Positions 13,857-44,125 of a stretch of 64,000 bases of DNA are shown piece after piece. The notes beneath the pieces are model-generated. The model did not search any database and had not been told where the DNA came from. It saw only the letters and a list, made by a program, of their open reading frames with translations. Each line of letters starts with the position of its first letter. The stretch's first letter is position 1. The DNA is from a virus: IMG/VR virus record IMGVR_UViG_3300025381_001071; one strand, written 5' to 3'. The position numbers and the translations under genes were made by a program.

Positions 13857-14049
13857 TGATGTTTTTAACTAAAGTATTGTTATCTTTACTTATAGTATAT
13901 ACACCCTTACGAACAAGACTTTGAGCAAGCCAGTGATCGTGCTCATCAAGACTACTGATTTTAATGCCGTTGTCATGATGTTCAATGAAGTGTTGTTCTT
14001 CATTGGTTACAGGTAAACTTATGCCTGATAGGAGTTGATGGATTTTCAT
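13840..14049 (-). CDS. Small hypothetical protein (possible winged-helix)
   Basis: 69 aa; AQSLVRKGV helix followed by short strands. Confidence 0.6.
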   Translation of the reverse strand: MKIHQLLSGISLPVTNEEQHFIEHHDNGIKISSLDEHDHWLAQSLVRKGVYTISKDNNTLVKNINENNT

Positions 14050-14489
14050 CCCGATACTCCCGGTTGTGGATTTAATGTTTCTGGAGGAGGTTCCTGGCCT
14101 TGTATTTGGCGTAACTTGGCCATTAAGTTACCCATTTGTGTTTGTAAATCTTGAACTGTTGCTGGCTGTTGACCAGGTTGTTGGGTTTCAGCATCTTCGG
14201 CTTCTGGTTGAGTAGACTGTGGTTGAATAGGTTGACTTGTAGCCTGTCCCACTTGTTGCTGAGGTTGTGGAGGAACTGTGGTAGGAGCACTGGGTGCTTT
14301 AGTACTTGGGGCAAAACCAGTAGGTTGAGTTGTCTTTGGAGTATTAGAAGTATTGGGTTTTGGTTCTGTATTAGGAATAGGGCTATCACCACTGGGTTTG
14401 CCGCCGGCTGGTACAGGTCCTACAACATTACCAGGAGTGGTATTGGTAGCCTGAGGTAATGTTTGTTCAACTAATTCTCTGATTTTCAT
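14046..14489 (-). CDS. Pro/Gln/Thr-rich disordered protein
   Basis: MKIRELVE start motif shared with neighbours (MRLFEV, MRIPELLE, MRASEIL); low complexity. Confidence 0.6.
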   Translation of the reverse strand: MKIRELVEQTLPQATNTTPGNVVGPVPAGGKPSGDSPIPNTEPKPNTSNTPKTTQPTGFAPSTKAPSAPTTVPPQPQQQVGQATSQPIQPQSTQPEAEDAETQQPGQQPATVQDLQTQMGNLMAKLRQIQGQEPPPETLNPQPGVSG

Positions 14490-16168: not shown

Positions 16169-16207
16169 TTGACATTCATGTTGCGGTGCCACATACTTGT
16201 ATAAATA
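16169..16207 (+). promoter_or_regulatory. Composite promoter: TTGACA-17-CATACT with a palindromic operator in the spacer, then late TATAAATA
   Basis: TTGACA 16169..16174; ATGTTGCGGTGCCACAT 16178..16194; TATAAATA 16200..16207. Confidence 0.65.
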
Positions 16208-16262
16208 AATATATCAGTAGAAACACTGATAGACAAAACTCACACAGAAAGGAAAACACAAA

Positions 16263-16430
16263 ATGTTAACATATATTACATTAGTTCTAGCAAAACTAGG
16301 AGAAATGTTTAGCTCGAAACAAACCAGTTTAGAGCGTTTTATTGAAGCTCAAAACCCAACCAATGCTGCTGAAGTAGATCACTACATTCGCCAGTACGAT
16401 CGTATGACTCGTAGTAGGAGTTATCTATGA
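16263..16430 (+). CDS. 55 aa small protein, DUF3563-like (missed by the ORF track)
   Basis: MLTYITLVLAKLGEMFSSKQTSLERFIEAQNPTNAAEVDHYIRQYDRMTRSRSYL; AAGGA SD. Confidence 0.6.
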   Translation: MLTYITLVLAKLGEMFSSKQTSLERFIEAQNPTNAAEVDHYIRQYDRMTRSRSYL

Positions 16431-16534
16431 TCAGCAAAATTTTTAAGAAATCTAGCTGGTTCCTGGTAACTGCCCTAGCAATTTACGCTACACAAATGGC
16501 TCTGGCCATAGAACTGTTTGCCAATGTTAAGTAA
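16427..16534 (+). CDS. 35 aa small membrane peptide (missed by the ORF track)
   Basis: MISKIFKKSSWFLVTALAIYATQMALAIELFANVK; ATGA overlap with the upstream stop. Confidence 0.5.
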   Translation: MISKIFKKSSWFLVTALAIYATQMALAIELFANVK

Positions 16535-16543
16535 GGCTGAACT

Positions 16544-17104: not shown

Positions 17105-17203
17105 CCATTACAGCTTTATTACACAGTATAAGACTGTATAATAAATACATAGGCAGTAAAGTTACTGCTTACACAGACATAACACACATAAAGGAAAAAT
17201 ATC

Positions 17204-17476
17204 ATGTCACAATTTGAAACACCTAAACTACCAGAAGTTAAATTCAACAAAAACGGTTATGAAATTCGTACAGACATCCTAGCAATGGCCAAAGATATGG
17301 TTCAAAGCGAATACAGTACCAAGTTTGCTGGATGGGAAATGAGCGCCAAGCGTGATGAGAAGACTGGTCAGATCGTTACCACAGTAGGCATGCCTGAGTT
17401 CCCAGGACTAGACAAAGTTCTCGAAACTGCTGAAAAAATGTATGAATTTGTAAATGCCGGAAATACAAAAAAATAA
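17204..17476 (+). CDS. Conserved small hypothetical protein
   Basis: KNGYEIRTDILAMAKD...AEKMYEFV; own promoter and AAGGA SD. Confidence 0.7.
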   Translation: MSQFETPKLPEVKFNKNGYEIRTDILAMAKDMVQSEYSTKFAGWEMSAKRDEKTGQIVTTVGMPEFPGLDKVLETAEKMYEFVNAGNTKK

Positions 17477-17539
17477 TATTAAATAATAAGCGATATAAAG
17501 ATGTCAGGGCATAGCCCTTATAATATGTTCGTAGAAAAA

Positions 17540-17567
17540 GAAAGCCCCTTAACTGGGGCTTTTTTTA
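17540..17567. terminator. Bidirectional Rho-independent terminator between converging units
   Basis: AAAGCCCC-TTAACT-GGGGCTTTTTTT. Confidence 0.85.
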
Positions 17568-18203
17568 TGGTTTAAGTTTACACTTATCAAAGTGATGGTT
17601 AATCATATTAGGTTTACCTCCTATCTTACCGCAATGAGGACAAGTTATTTTTATATTGTTTGGGTTGTTTGATCCTTGAAAGTTATGTGTTCCTTTAGAC
17701 AATCTTTCTATATTAGATTTATGTTGAACTTCTCCCCCGAGGAACGGATGAGTTCCATTCTTTACCTTGTTAAGTTCTTTTTCGCGAGCCCATTCTTTGT
17801 TTAAGAAATGATGGTTATTATTTGCTAATCTAATATTTGCTCGTTGACTTGCTGTTTCACTATTTTGCCAGTTATGGGTGCCTTCGCTTATTCGCTTCTG
17901 ATTTATTTTACGAGCAGTTTCGGGATCATTTCCGTCTCCTGCCTCAGGTTTAAGATTAGCCCACTCACTACTTTCAACTATGTTCCAGAGGTTGCTATAA
18001 TACATTCCCCAGGATTTAGCATCGAATGAATTTTGACATTCTCGAAGTATTTCTGTAGTATAATCTTTACCATGTGTTTCGAGATGGCGTTTCCAGTACA
18101 AACCAGATCCTGTATACTTATGAGGATCTTTTGCTGTAGTTTTGCCGAGATATTTTAACCCAGTTTTATTATGGGTTTTGACATAGAGTTTGTAAATAGT
18201 CAT
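17565..18203 (-). mobile_element. Free-standing GIY-YIG (Seg-like) homing endonuclease
   Basis: IYKLYVKTHNKTGLKYLGKT, Y.GSG.YW, four G.H.F/W repeats, C-terminal CPHCGK. Confidence 0.8.
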
Positions 18204-18279
18204 GCTGATTGTTTCCTTTAAGTTATTACAATTAGAGCTGTCGGATGTTAGCGCATCGCGGACGGCATTTTTATTTATA
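18204..18279 (-). promoter_or_regulatory. Late promoter plus structured 5' leader of the GIY-YIG gene
   Basis: TATAAATA 18272..18279, then GC(C)GTC..GATG-CGCTAA-CATC..GAC(A)GC stem-loop and AAAGGA SD. Confidence 0.55.
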
Positions 18280-18694
18280 TAATTATCGGTTTAGCCGATA
18301 GGTACTCGGGATAGAGTTTATTAAAGTGGCGAAGGACCACACCAGCGATAGCATGTGCCTCATTCTCATGCGGGCTACCAGTACGCCCGCTATCTGCTTC
18401 TAGTTCGTGTTCTGTGTCTTGTTTATAGTGTACAAGTTCGTGAGCAACAGTACGCAGTATATCATTAGGATGACGATTTAGTAAGGCAACATACAGAGTT
18501 TTTTCACTATTTTCGTACTTACCAAAAGTAGGTTGAACATCATCGTGTATATGCGCTTCAAACTTCATAGTAGGCAAAGACTTTAGGCCGATATAGTGCA
18601 TGGCAACAGGCAAGAACTTACGGAACATTTCCATAAAGTTTGTTTTATGATGTTCTAAGCCTTCAATGTCTTCTAATAGTTCTGGAATACGCAT
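18275..18694 (-). CDS. Zincin-like metallopeptidase (HEXXH; IrrE/ImmA-like)
   Basis: LRTVAHELVHYKQ with a downstream E (ENEA). Confidence 0.65.
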   Translation of the reverse strand: MRIPELLEDIEGLEHHKTNFMEMFRKFLPVAMHYIGLKSLPTMKFEAHIHDDVQPTFGKYENSEKTLYVALLNRHPNDILRTVAHELVHYKQDTEHELEADSGRTGSPHENEAHAIAGVVLRHFNKLYPEYLSAKPIII

Positions 18695-18709
18695 TGTGTA
18701 TTTATTAGT

Positions 18710-18800
18710 CCCGCTGACTTTATACGGGGCACACTACGCGGTGCAGTGAAATTTCGCGGACGCCTTTGCCGTGGCTTCCAACGGAACCTAAGGTAGGTGT
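18710..18800 (-). ncRNA. Candidate structured RNA (several GC-rich hairpins, possible pseudoknot)
   Basis: CCG(T)TGG-AAG-CCACGG; CACTGC-ACCGC-GTAGTG; CCCGT-ATAAAGTCA-GCGGG; no ORF; GC-rich in an AT-rich context. Confidence 0.45.
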
Positions 18801-18919
18801 TCTTCAGGATATGGCAATCCTGCCATACCTAATCCAAATCTTACAAGCCCATCATACAGGGCTGTAAGGATTGCGAGGCCTATCGTAGCCATCGTCTTCG
18901 GGATAGACTGGATATTCAT
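18788..18919 (-). CDS. Putative 43 aa hydrophobic small ORF
   Basis: MNIQSIPKTMATIGLAILTALYDGLVRFGLGMAGLPYPEEHLP; overlaps the 24 aa ORF in another frame. Confidence 0.3.
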   Translation of the reverse strand: MNIQSIPKTMATIGLAILTALYDGLVRFGLGMAGLPYPEEHLP

Positions 18920-18926
18920 TCAACAT
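18852..18926 (-). CDS. Putative 24 aa small ORF
   Basis: MLNEYPVYPEDDGYDRPRNPYSPV; TAATG coupling to the upstream mini-ORF. Confidence 0.4.
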   Translation of the reverse strand: MLNEYPVYPEDDGYDRPRNPYSPV

Positions 18927-18999
18927 TACTGTCCAAGATTAAACTTCATACCAGTGGCTTTTTCCACTTCAGTCATTGTGGTTTGATACTTTATTTATA

Positions 19000-19407
19000 T
19001 TAAAATCCGGCGTTGGTTAACCTTGCGGCTATTTCATTTAAGGCTTGACTAATAGTAGTAACTGTTGAATGCCAGTTAGCAGGGACTGCTGGAGTATAAC
19101 TCATTGTAGATGGTTGAGGGGTTCCGTCAACCCATGCGCCTTGATAGTAGATGTACAAACGACCACTGTTACTATCCCACCATAATAAACCATCATGAGG
19201 ATTACTAGGTGCAGATGATCCTGAAAATGTTAATGAGCTACCGCTTAATGGTAATCCACCTGGAGTAACACCGTCGCTGTATTTTAATATAGGCGCGATA
19301 CCTGTGGCAGTGGTCTGTGCGTAGAATAATCGACCTTCTTCACCTACATAGGTGTCGCTGTCAATGTTTAGTGCTCTGCTTGAGTAAACCTTATGTGATA
19401 TAGGCAC
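19000..19407 (-). CDS. Short tail-fibre-like protein
   Basis: YVGEEGRLFY, YSDGVTPGG and APSNPHDGLLWWDSNSGRLYIYY modules shared with the long fibres. Confidence 0.6.
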   Translation of the reverse strand: MPISHKVYSSRALNIDSDTYVGEEGRLFYAQTTATGIAPILKYSDGVTPGGLPLSGSSLTFSGSSAPSNPHDGLLWWDSNSGRLYIYYQGAWVDGTPQPSTMSYTPAVPANWHSTVTTISQALNEIAARLTNAGF

Positions 19408-20799: not shown

Positions 20800-21432
20800 T
20801 TATTCCTGAAACAATAAAATATGAGCATTAAAATCTGCTGTTAAGTCAGCATCTAACTCTGCTCCATCTCCCTCGTTTAACATAAAGCCATTACCTGTTA
20901 TTGTGCCTTCCACAACATACAAATACGCATTGTTTGTATTTAGTGTTTGAAGTCCTGTTATCCATCCTGCGTGAATAGTCATATCCTGCTGTAGTGTTAC
21001 TGGTATAATTCCATAGGTATCGGGGTCTTTTTCAATGATTTCATAGTAAGGATTGCTGTCTTTTAAGCTATCTTTAGGTGTAATCCATAGTTGTAGATAC
21101 CTTGCTGGTACTGAGCCCACTGACGCTTCTGTGTGCCATATTGACTTTCCACACCACATATGTTGGATTTGTCCAGGACGGGCTCTTTGTACATTGCCTA
21201 GGCTGTCCTTATGCTCTAGCTCGCCTTCTACAAGATAACCTAGAATGTCAAAGTTGCGGTGTTCATGGTTTGGAACCATGTTGCCGGGTTGTTGTAGATC
21301 ATCGTTGATAACTTTTAGGTCACCCCAGTTCATGTATTTTGGGTCCCAATAACTGTTGTTGCTAAATGTTCTACGGCTCTGTATCCAACCCACATCTAGA
21401 AAACCCCTAGTGTTAGCAGGGCGTATCCGCAT
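20800..21432 (-). CDS. Pirin-family bicupin (YhhW-like)
   Basis: RG..D.GW..SR.TFS, LKVINDD, NHEH, EHKDSLGN and IWHTE metal-ligand motifs; TAATG coupling at 21432. Confidence 0.9.
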   Translation of the reverse strand: MRIRPANTRGFLDVGWIQSRRTFSNNSYWDPKYMNWGDLKVINDDLQQPGNMVPNHEHRNFDILGYLVEGELEHKDSLGNVQRARPGQIQHMWCGKSIWHTEASVGSVPARYLQLWITPKDSLKDSNPYYEIIEKDPDTYGIIPVTLQQDMTIHAGWITGLQTLNTNNAYLYVVEGTITGNGFMLNEGDGAELDADLTADFNAHILLFQE

Positions 21433-22253
21433 TAGCGCACCCAGTACCAAATAATGCCTGGGCTACCTACTCCGGCGTCATTTTGCCACGGTGCTGGACT
21501 AAAACTAGCGTCATAGTCCATTAAAGATCCCCACCACGATCCAGGATCATCGTGTGTTGTAGTAAAAATAGCTTCACCTGCTAAACCCGGACTGTTACCA
21601 GTGTACCAAGGCATCCGCTTTTCTAATCCGTTGTTGTTGTAGTTCCAAGTGCCAAACTTGGTTTTTAGTGTGATGTTTTGACGGAAGCCGTTACCAGTAG
21701 AAATCACAGCATTGAACTCGTCAGTGTTATATTGTGTGCCACCAAAGTACGGGCCGGATCCCTGTGCGGCATAAGCAGTTAGATCAACTTCTCCTGTGAA
21801 ACTATAGGCTTCGTTGGCTGTAAAGATACCACCATTACTGTTACGAGAAACTGCTTCTAACATATAGTCAAAGCCGCTGGCACTACGCTTGATATAATCT
21901 GCCCAACCAATAATACTATAGTTGATACTGCCTAGTGTACTGGGCGGCGATGTAGAGTTTCGTAGTAAAGCAGTGTCGTAACTCCAGTCTGGATTCATAT
22001 TCTGCATAATCAGGGTCCAACCACCACCGTCTGTGGTCATATCAGCATAGATTTGAACTGGGTCTTTACCGTTGAAATTATCGTTTTGTATCCAATATAA
22101 ACCATCTGGGCTAGAGGGATATGCTTGTTTGATAGCATAAGCACTTGTACTAGGATCACTGCTGGTAAGTCCGGTTGGTAGCGGTACTGAGATACCACTA
22201 TTAAGCGTAACACCTGGTCCTATTGAGAATCCTGAATTAAGCGTTAGTCCCAT
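21432..22253 (-). CDS. Fibrinogen C-terminal-like domain virion protein
   Basis: SAYAIKQ...DGLYWI...YADMTTDGGGWTLI. Confidence 0.75.
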   Translation of the reverse strand: MGLTLNSGFSIGPGVTLNSGISVPLPTGLTSSDPSTSAYAIKQAYPSSPDGLYWIQNDNFNGKDPVQIYADMTTDGGGWTLIMQNMNPDWSYDTALLRNSTSPPSTLGSINYSIIGWADYIKRSASGFDYMLEAVSRNSNGGIFTANEAYSFTGEVDLTAYAAQGSGPYFGGTQYNTDEFNAVISTGNGFRQNITLKTKFGTWNYNNNGLEKRMPWYTGNSPGLAGEAIFTTTHDDPGSWWGSLMDYDASFSPAPWQNDAGVGSPGIIWYWVR

Positions 22254-22256
22254 ATG

Positions 22257-23081
22257 TTATACTCCATACCTTGATCTGTAACTGTTAAAGTTATGAGCAA
22301 CTTCCTGATCAGTTAACGCACGATTGTAGCACATGACCACGGGAATATAAGCATCAACAGTATCATGTCCGTCCCAACGACGAGCTACACGATAGCCTAA
22401 TGAACTGCCCAGTGTTGTTGAAGCAACATTGCCAGAAGTTTCCTGTAGGGTACCATTGATATATAATCTTAAATAGGTGCCATCATAAGTACCTACTATG
22501 TTATACCAAGTACCAGCAGTGATAGCATATCCGTTGGTCAACTGCCAAGCGGGTCCATTGCCATCATAATATCCAGCTCGAATATAGTTGTCACTTCCGC
22601 TACCATTGTAGGGTGTTAGGGTCATGTTAACAGTATTGATACCTGGTGCTCCACCCAAATACTCTCCACCAAATATTTGAGGCAATAGACCACTGGGGGG
22701 CCAAGTTACAGCATTGAACCAAGTGTTAACGGTCCATTGTATTATGTTGGTGCCTATATTAGGTAATGCGGCATATTGCCAAGTGGCCGCATTGAATCTG
22801 ATATCACCTTGGCCGTCAGTGGACATTGTTGAACTATCTAAGACATTGCCATTAATAATAGTTCCATTATTGTCTAAAGCACTAGGGTTAGCATAGAAAG
22901 TAGCGTTATTTCCGTGACCGCTTAGGTCATACCAAGTTGATCCTGACCCTGGCCAACTGGCGGCTATACGACTGTCAAGATATAGTAATAGTCCGTCGGC
23001 AATGTATGGAGGTATGGGAGTATTACCCTGTAGAGTAACTCCGTTGCCTATAGTCTGTGCTGATCGTATTGTTATTGACAT
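22257..23081 (-). CDS. LamG/concanavalin A-like lectin domain virion protein
   Basis: GLLLYLD...SWPGSGSTWYDLSG, WYNIVGTYDG..LRLYING, YNRALT. Confidence 0.85.
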   Translation of the reverse strand: MSITIRSAQTIGNGVTLQGNTPIPPYIADGLLLYLDSRIAASWPGSGSTWYDLSGHGNNATFYANPSALDNNGTIINGNVLDSSTMSTDGQGDIRFNAATWQYAALPNIGTNIIQWTVNTWFNAVTWPPSGLLPQIFGGEYLGGAPGINTVNMTLTPYNGSGSDNYIRAGYYDGNGPAWQLTNGYAITAGTWYNIVGTYDGTYLRLYINGTLQETSGNVASTTLGSSLGYRVARRWDGHDTVDAYIPVVMCYNRALTDQEVAHNFNSYRSRYGV

Positions 23082-41194: not shown

Positions 41195-41229
41195 CTTGGG
41201 AATCCTTGGGTTTGGCTACGGTTCATCCA

Positions 41230-41296
41230 GTATTTAGTTGCTCTTTGAACAAACCTATGCTATAATAAAATGGTAACATTTACACAGATAAATATT
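41230..41296. promoter_or_regulatory. Divergent promoter region
   Basis: Minus strand CTAAATA (late) for the fibre operon; plus strand TTGCTC-17-TATAAT (41238..41266) and GATAAATA for the HNH gene. Confidence 0.6.
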
Positions 41297-43790: not shown

Positions 43791-43798
43791 GATGATAT

Positions 43799-44125
43799 TT
43801 ATACCCTAAAACTTTCGCCACAACCACATTCACCACGAGAGTTTGGATTATGGAATTCAAATCCTTCATTAAGTCCTTGGCGGACATAATCTATTTCTAG
43901 CCCATCTAAATAAACAGAATCACGTCCATTTACCCAAACAGTGGCTCCGTTGTGTTCGTATTTGAACCAATCACGAGTTGCAGGAGCACTATCCATATAT
44001 TCTAGCACATAGGCCAAGCCACTGCAACCTGTGGTTTTTACACCTACCCTAACACCAACTCCTTGCCCTCTTCGAGCAATTTGTTGTTTGATTTTATTAG
44101 AAGCTGTTTCTGTTAAGGTAATCAT
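43799..44125 (-). CDS. iscA: A-type Fe-S carrier protein, IscA-like
   Basis: [32 protein letters not shown]. Confidence 0.9.

Follow-up and report, generated by a model that had tools for sequence, protein, structure and literature searches.

A structured RNA family with covarying stems in uncultured freshwater T4-like giant phages

The rnaC and rnaD RNAs of bacteriophage T4 (species 1 and 2 RNAs) are ~120-140 nt long; the T4 record labels them only 'small, stable RNA' and, to our knowledge, they still have no assigned function. GOLLD and ROOL, orphan RNAs in Rfam, were found by comparative genomics, are supported by covariation and associated with phages, and were of unknown function when described; they are several hundred nt long and contain complex junctions. 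T4-type phages also carry PeSL elements, which occur in many copies per genome and combine a sigma-70-type early promoter with one G/C-rich stem-loop, an arrangement that has been explained at the level of DNA and of termination (PMC2839356, PMC4122927). Analogous elements are found in the internal-protein (IP) loci of T-even phages (PMC2839356). Here we analyse a window of 64,000 nt, part of the 99-kb IMG/VR record IMGVR_UViG_3300025381_001071 (completeness estimate 28%), in which the minus strand carries nearly all of the genes. A gap of 305 nt on that strand (18695-18999) ends in a structured RNA whose family, from uncultured freshwater T4-like giant phages, had not been described before.

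Like rnaC and rnaD, the RNA is phage-encoded, single-copy, intergenic and gene-sense. The T4 genes lie inside a tRNA cluster, however, whereas ARAGORN found 0 tRNA or tmRNA genes in the window, and homology was rejected: R1, the covariance model of the new family, gave no match at the rnaC/rnaD coordinates with filters off (best score 9.6 bits in the 16-kb region). Unlike GOLLD and ROOL, the RNA consists of tandem hairpins spanning ~90-130 nt, and it has no match in Rfam 15. The whole window gave 0 Rfam 15 matches at the gathering score, and relaxing the search to E up to 10 and permissive filters still gave no match that overlaps 18695-18999, in agreement with an earlier note on this DNA according to which the region fits no known family; literature searches by topic and by literal sequence words found no description of the element. 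The PeSL and IP-locus elements of T4-type phages resemble the RNA in being conserved non-coding cassettes of variable regions, among swapped and often orphan genes, and PeSL cassettes, like the RNA locus, end in a stem-loop that is followed by a promoter for the next gene (PMC2839356, PMC4122927). The RNA differs from them in being single-copy, in its five to six helices with covarying stems and invariant loops, and in the late-type TAAATA behind it. A scan of the RNA element found no sigma-70 match, and its identification as a PeSL regulatory cassette (PMC2839356) was rejected, the two being analogous only in their flanking swapped genes.

The family, which occurs in more than a hundred such phages, comprises 98 distinct sequences from viral and lake metagenome contigs, of which 97 score 70-122 bits with R1 (the outlier, L011, scores 52). 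An exact 33-nt pattern from the core matches 41 viral contig stretches and a looser 20-nt pattern matches 113 metagenome contig stretches; R1 confirmed 80 of 80 among the metagenome loci listed. A 14-nt pattern gave mostly chance matches in viral contigs, with R1 confirming 19 of 68 newly fetched loci. There is one copy of the RNA in the 99-kb record and one in a 353-kb genome (99% complete), while none was found in a related 328-kb genome (92% complete). Comparison of the locus and of the RNA with 50,697 cultured-phage records by blastn returned no match. Distant homologues of the 139-aa protein encoded directly downstream of the gap occur in Synechococcus phages S-SRM01, B3 and B23, and R1 found no RNA on the S-SRM01 and B23 records. 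Among 185,579 prokaryote genomes the 20-nt pattern matched three, two Fibrobacter and one Micrarchaeota metagenome-assembled genomes; since R1 rejects all of them, we regard these as chance matches.

The RNA accounts for only part of the gap. When the gap was compared by blastn with the loci of relatives of the 139-aa protein, three separately conserved blocks were evident (q9-74, q80-213 and q235-305, where q runs along the minus strand and q1 = 18999). These blocks combine differently among relatives, and their order has changed once, so the locus is modular. The gap is a mosaic of protein-coding late-gene sequence (18803-18999) and structured RNA (18710-18798). The features listed in the earlier note, including a GC-rich 3' element, are all present on the minus strand, but they do not form the single hairpin-dense transcript element of 280 nt that it described: the hairpins it named sit in coding sequence and are not conserved in relatives. 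Its suggestion of a novel structured RNA therefore holds for the last ~90 nt and not for the whole 280 nt. It had proposed to look among homologues for covarying stems, and the 3' element has them. The gap is also not the largest in the track of open reading frames (ORFs), as had been stated, for those at 17105-17564 and 16193-16543 (between ORFs of at least 100 aa) are longer, and it holds a third small ORF, of 16 aa, that the note did not list.

Folding of the single sequence points elsewhere. The gap as a whole folds with z = -2.9 (0 of 100 shuffles fold as well), the ORF part alone with z = -3.5 and the 3' element alone with z = -0.9. Yet RNAalifold finds no conserved structure in the hairpins of the ORF part (-1.65 kcal/mol over 19 relatives), while the stems of the 3' element covary strongly among relatives, so that thermodynamics singles out the wrong part. 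Single-sequence folds can thus mislead, the stablest hairpins of this gap being unconserved coding sequence and the real RNA motif folding no better than shuffles.

The covariation-supported structure consists of five hairpins, H1-H5, with a single-stranded junction between H2 and H3 (Table 1). H1 has the family form CCC[ACCUUA]GGG, in which one pair changes from C-G to U-A in 12 sequences, and H2 has rare CGC/GCG variants. The junction reads nAGGCGUCC in the family and is nearly invariant. H3 is composed of a G-C closing pair, two usually non-canonical positions and a covarying pair (CG 82, AU 15, UA 1) around AAUU, and its central six bases are always self-complementary (CAAUUG 82, AAAUUU 15, UAAUUA 1). 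H4 is made up of four pairs and a bulged U, and its loop GCGUA is closed by an inner pair (CG 75, GC 20, UA 2). H5 has five pairs around AUAAAGU(A/C/U)A, with 3-4 pair types each and 32 U-G closing pairs. An optional sixth hairpin of 12-57 nt is present in 43 of the 98 members; its stems are fully compensated and its loops are CUUG, GUAA or UUCG. The loops ACCUUA, AAUU, GCGUA and AUAAAGUAA are nearly invariant, and altogether ~40 of the ~90 nt are nearly invariant and mostly unpaired.

In all sequences (100%) the positions of H4, among them the inner pair 162:169 that lies outside the model, and those of H5 are paired, and each shows 3-5 pair types. Covariation scores 0.465 in the alignment, compared with 0.124 in shuffles (0 of 500 reach the observed value) and at most 0.091 for slid partners. 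The same pairs are seen in a structure-blind MAFFT alignment and are top-ranked in a structure-free scan of mutual information with average product correction (APC), which returned no long-range pair. H4 has several G-U pairs, which, like the U-G closing pairs of H5, would be A-C mismatches on the opposite strand; many strand-specific G-U pairs of this kind indicate an RNA that folds on the gene-sense strand.

Table 1. Features of the gap and its immediate neighbours (window positions; hairpin loops in square brackets).
Feature	Position	Strand	Description
Structured RNA core	18710-18798	minus	covariance-model match 18702-18802
H1	18786-18798	minus	ACCU[ACCUU]AGGU in window
H2	18769-18784	minus	family form CCGU...ACGG, 3-6 bp
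Single-stranded junction CAAAGGCGUCC	18758-18768	minus	11 nt
H3	18746-18757	minus	GCGA[AAUU]UCAC, palindromic
H4	18729-18744	minus	GCAC-C[GCGUA]G-U-GUGC
H5	18710-18728	minus	CCCGU[AUAAAGUCA]GCGGG
AATAAATA	18699-18706	minus	late-promoter-like; 4 nt upstream of next gene's ATG (18694)
Downstream neighbour of gap	18275-18694	minus	139-aa ORF (MRIPELLED...); HExxH motif (HELVH)
orf43	18788-18919	minus	43-aa ORF in +1 frame of orf24; TAG stop inside RNA H1 loop
orf24	18852-18926	minus	24-aa acidic Pro/Tyr-rich peptide (MLNEYPVYPEDDGYDRPRNPYSPV)
16-codon ORF (MTEVEKATGMKFNLGQ*)	18926-18976	minus	stop overlaps orf24 start (TAATG)
TATAAATA	18992-18999	minus	T4-type late-promoter-like; 15 nt upstream of gap's first ATG
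Hairpin CTTACAGCCC/GGGCTTGTAAG	within 18840-18868	minus	within small-ORF coding sequence
Hairpin TATGGCA/TGCCATA	within 18809-18831	minus	within small-ORF coding sequence
Upstream neighbour of gap	19000-19407		135-aa ORF; weak tail-fibre-like matches

The possible CGCG/CGCG pseudoknot of the earlier note is contradicted by the alignment: in the second tract, the leading C is taken up by a covarying pair with G169 inside H4 (this is the CG 75, GC 20, UA 2 pair), and sequences with a different first tract (GCA or GUG for GCG) keep the same loop. The invariant bases of the two tracts may still make a contact of 3 bp. A long-range CGG/CCG pairing suggested by RNAalifold was rejected, both of its sides being invariant and in conflict with H2 (CGU/ACG to CGC/GCG). 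When loop sequences were compared, five of six bases could pair between the loops of H1 and H5 (L1-L5), around a central C-A mismatch; these bases are invariant. The HIV-1 DIS hairpin and the phi29 pRNA are RNAs that dimerise by loop-loop contact through a six-base self-complementary hairpin sequence. H3 is like them in that its outer bases covary and six-base self-complementarity is kept, and unlike them in that an AAUU tetraloop closed by an intramolecular pair accounts for its covariation. The RNA has no match to the pRNA family of Rfam.

We lean towards the view that the RNA is non-coding and stable, that late transcripts carry it at their 3' end, and that its invariant loops contact a conserved partner. 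This reading rests on conservation beyond what a terminator or stabiliser would need, on exchangeable neighbours, and on the terminators or the dedicated promoter that flank the RNA in some genomes. The RNA is independent of particular neighbouring genes. The first ORFs on either side of it fall into many unrelated clusters: upstream, the large ORFs other than nuclease genes form 26 clusters and, downstream, the ORFs form more than 20 unrelated ones. Intrinsic terminators lie ~5-15 nt after the RNA in L101, L112, L130, L248, L257 and L299. In L240 a terminator is followed by a TAAATA that ends 7 nt before the first conserved bases of the RNA (ACCC). Relatives that have no RNA join orf24 directly to a gene whose product starts MRAKEF, so that the RNA together with TAAATA behaves as an inserted, self-contained unit.

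In the mechanism that we envisage, a late transcript of the gene-sense strand, which in the window would start from TATAAATA, would have the RNA as its 3' end. That end would be fixed by H5 or by a terminator just past H5, trimming may take place at the A-rich single-stranded flanks AAGAA and ACUAAAUA, and the resulting stable RNA would expose its invariant loops to a partner that is itself conserved and most likely a protein. The self-complementary bases of H3 (CAAUUG, AAAUUU or UAAUUA) could serve either to close a weak hairpin or to pair two copies loop to loop.

A number of observations weigh against the stable-RNA reading. We infer both the expression of the RNA and its ends. The window copy folds no better than its shuffles, and its minimum-energy fold differs from the covariation-supported structure. 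Covariation is modest in H1, H2 and H3, two of the four H3 'pairs' being non-canonical in most members, and because the sequences are related the cell counts overstate the number of independent events. A scan of 18695-18999 found no intrinsic terminator (ACUAAUAA follows H5 in the window), and a U-run follows H5 in only 4 of the 98 members (L127, L131, L136 and L292); as most copies have no U-tail, H5 is not a standard terminator. The RNA always lies tightly between same-strand ORFs. Among the 83 loci with a large ORF upstream, 41 have a nuclease gene there, and an all-against-all comparison of the ORFs downstream of the 98 RNAs placed 44 in one cluster with the 139-aa HExxH gene. This arrangement suits a cis-acting role equally well.

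Covariation-supported RNAs with ~40 nearly invariant nt are rare, and past cases have turned out to be ribozymes, riboswitches or the cores of ribonucleoproteins (RNPs). It is conceivable, although we consider it unlikely, that the family represents a new class of phage RNA, either catalytic or dimerising through H3 in an RNP whose protein is a late product of the phage (such as one connected with the capsid-targeted MRAKEF-type proteins encoded beside the RNA or with the secreted nucleases). If so, T4-like giant phages would own an RNA component that has no counterpart in the model phages. Whatever its function, the RNA persists in single copy amid genes that are swapped, and it is confined to uncultured freshwater T4-like giant phages; a new covarying family that has no described relative, and for which an alignment of 98 distinct sequences is ready, offers a well-defined target for RNA biology.

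The main rival to a stable non-coding RNA is a cis-acting intercistronic element of the mRNA that governs translation of the next gene or the stability of the flanking cistrons, to which we assign a minor but real share of the probability. In one variant a repressor would bind H5 as an operator hairpin, just ahead of a start codon lacking a Shine-Dalgarno sequence; the T4 gp43 and gp32 operators are repressor-bound operators near a start codon and offer a comparison for H5. The position of the RNA fits such a role, since it is always in the sense orientation, in many loci begins no more than ~10 nt from the upstream stop codon and usually ends 12-16 nt before a start codon. The gene downstream in the window has no Shine-Dalgarno sequence, one family accounts for the 44 clustered downstream ORFs mentioned above, and many of the other downstream products share the MRAKEF N-terminus. 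Against it, at least 10 loci have a terminator or U-run directly behind the RNA, and several of these have no nearby same-strand gene downstream. Elsewhere in the fetched loci, too, MRAKEF-type genes are preceded by TAAATA-N(3-7)-ATG, and the RNA-less relatives join orf24 to the MRAKEF gene. Moreover, ~40 near-invariant nt retained across swapped neighbours exceed what a simple operator would need. A riboswitch-like element, which the earlier note had considered, is unlikely: the downstream genes belong to at least 20 unrelated families, the loop of the last hairpin is invariant, and terminators come directly after the RNA in at least six loci.

A tie between the RNA and secreted nucleases, whereby it would be a 3' untranslated control element, a decoy or an inhibitor, and the orf24 peptide possibly a protein inhibitor, strikes us as improbable. 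It is suggested by the upstream slot, which among the 83 loci with a large upstream ORF holds Endonuclease_NS in 26 and SNase in 15, and by orf24, which overlaps the stop codon of the nuclease gene and accompanies Endonuclease_NS in 22 of those 26 loci. Half of the loci, however, have no nuclease nearby, the window retains both RNA and orf24 even though its nuclease is deleted, and in RNA-less relatives orf24 lies behind an IscA-like gene. Both nuclease families carry signal peptides, so that a cytoplasmic inhibitor is not obviously needed, and shared ancestry inflates the counts. The two families are unrelated to each other and share one genomic slot across relatives (L103:8687-9205, L277:5983-6813, L025:1591-2307).

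The loss of the nuclease from the window can be read from the 16-codon ORF. Long ORFs in L025, L127 and L136 have a C-terminus identical or nearly so to its product, MTEVEKATGMKFNLGQ; the L025 ORF matches the Pfam family Endonuclease_NS (PF01223) with E 1.7e-36, and another full-length relative does so with E 3.1e-36. Homology between the window and these nuclease genes ends ~10 nt upstream of the ATG of the 16-codon ORF, which marks the ORF as the stump of a deleted nuclease gene. Judged by this homology, it is the vestigial 3' end of a gene for a DNA/RNA non-specific endonuclease, and the lineage of the window has deleted its nuclease copy. The ORF itself was not accepted as a member of Endonuclease_NS (PF01223), only the last 16 residues being left in the window, and neither Endonuclease_NS nor SNase was found in the 99-kb record.

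Much less probable than a cis-acting role is an element acting at the level of DNA, such as a replication origin, an anchor for recombination in cassette swapping or a protein-binding site, with hairpins that form in single-stranded DNA. There is one copy per genome, variable genes lie on both sides, the conserved block runs through the first ~6 codons (MRAKEF) of unrelated downstream genes, and the core of H3 is palindromic; promoter and stem-loop cassettes are known to mediate shuffling in T4-type phages (PMC2839356, PMC4122927). The many strand-specific G-U pairs speak against this, as do covarying stems with fixed loops and an inserted variable hairpin, which denote a folded single strand where a recombination anchor would need sequence identity only, and PeSL elements are multi-copy and simple (PMC2839356). 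The RNA may act as a recombination anchor secondarily. We give similarly little weight to a new self-cleaving ribozyme or processing element that would cut late polycistronic mRNA where the conserved block begins on its 5' side, since the ~40 nearly invariant and mostly unpaired nt in ~90, the sharp 5' boundary directly behind upstream stop codons and the variable length of a peripheral stem that favour it are set against five local hairpins with no nested pseudoknot or multi-helix junction, the absence of a hammerhead-like core motif and the lack of a match to any Rfam ribozyme family in the search relaxed to E up to 10 and permissive filters.

Both of the overlapping small ORFs described in the earlier note (24 and 43 aa) proved to be real conserved coding sequences. 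The consensus of the orf24 peptide is N(D/E)YPVYPEDDGxDRxRNPYSP(V/A); tblastn found it in ~20 of the first loci, and it adjoins the RNA at 38 of the 98 distinct RNA loci. Across 27 distinct 69-nt sequences, all of which keep the reading frame and stop, five first, four second and 22 of 22 third codon positions are variable, with entropy sums of 4.6, 2.8 and 26.5, respectively. Variation concentrated at third positions implies purifying selection in this frame and, by this codon pattern, orf24 is a genuine conserved small protein gene. It lies behind Endonuclease_NS in the 22 loci counted above, and in L055 and L071 it occurs with no RNA. Its start overlaps the stop codon of the upstream gene, through which (as TAATG in the window) it would be translationally coupled to the nuclease remnant. 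A conserved hairpin around the orf24 stop codon was considered and found no support from relatives.

Only the C-terminal half of orf43 (DGLVRFGLGMAGLPYPEEHLP) is conserved as protein. Nineteen loci have an extension of 38-71 nt from the orf24 stop to the RNA that encodes its motif, (E/D)GLxRxGCGxxGIPYP, with conservative substitutions, and 13 'hypothetical protein' clusters in the protein collection match this motif. In the N-terminal half the variable positions are the second codon positions, a pattern that marks it as merely the unconstrained +1 frame of orf24. Where the extension exists, 16 of 16 loci have the orf43 ATG (AATGA), as opposed to 7 of 11 where it is missing. A programmed +1 frameshift from orf24 into the extension is unlikely: there is no slippery site at the orf24 stop (CCU-GUA-UGA), and with the ATG kept as well, independent initiation of orf43 is the likelier route. 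The type I toxin-like locus raised in the earlier note finds no backing, in that the N-terminal half of orf43 is unconstrained and carries K, R and E, no antisense partner was seen, and a scan of the gap found no antisense promoter. Two small phage proteins come to light here: an acidic peptide of 24 aa that is coupled to secreted nucleases, and the product of an overlapping gene with GCGxxGIPYP.

From its position, TATAAATA at the head of the gap is the probable promoter of a transcript that spans the RNA and both small ORFs. The window shows no enrichment of the motif (7 observed, 9.3 expected); six of the seven copies are on the coding strand and several lie just upstream of ORFs. Behind the RNA, relatives usually show CTAAATA in place of AATAAATA, and the 3' flank ACUAAAUA is present at 41 of the 98 RNA loci. 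Since TAAATA-N(3-7)-ATG precedes many MRAKEF-type genes in the fetched loci, some of them not directly behind the RNA, this flank is probably a signal of the next gene and lies outside the RNA; AATAAATA and ACUAAAUA would then be a DNA-level late promoter or initiation signal of the downstream gene. At three places in the window, (T/C/A)ATAAATA or CTAAATA stands only 4-5 nt before a start codon that has no Shine-Dalgarno sequence (18699-18706 with ATG 18694; 41224-41237; 43796-43803 with ATG 43790), an arrangement that suggests leaderless or near-leaderless late mRNAs in this phage group.

The 139-aa gene is the commonest downstream neighbour of the RNA. Its product has 244 relatives in viral contigs, and its Pfam matches to putative metallopeptidases (DUF6782, M78) are weak and below the cut-off. 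Many unrelated downstream proteins start MRAKEF, MRAREF or MRAQEF. More widely, the N-terminal motif M[RK]x(x)[KQR]E[FL] is common to unrelated proteins (MRAKEF 33, MRAREF 23, MKITEL 13; 137 distinct ORFs) and occurs in the window in the ORFs at 18275-18694 (-) and 14046-14489 (-). The MRAKEF-type start resembles the N-termini MKTYQEFIAE and MKTFKEF of T4 internal proteins, which form a capsid-targeting sequence common to otherwise diverse injected proteins (PMC3012670). By analogy, MRAKEF-type proteins may be packaged and injected, with a conserved start behind which their genes are exchanged.

The second gene after the RNA, a 212-aa ORF (17565-18203, minus strand), matches phrog_12324, a family of intron-like or HNH DNA endonucleases, with E 9.5e-11 and is probably a free-standing homing endonuclease. 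Next to it, at 17541-17562, is a G+C-rich hairpin (AAAGCCCC...GGGGCTTT) of 8 perfect bp, flanked by T-runs and with weak, sub-threshold matches to Rfam sRNAs; it resembles a bidirectional terminator placed between two convergent genes. On the upstream side of the gap, the minus-strand ORFs at 20800-21450 and 21432-23081 encode a pirin/cupin protein (PF02678, E 2e-23) and segments that resemble the C-termini of fibrinogen or collagen; these pirin/cupin and fibrinogen/collagen-like proteins lie among tail-fibre-like genes.

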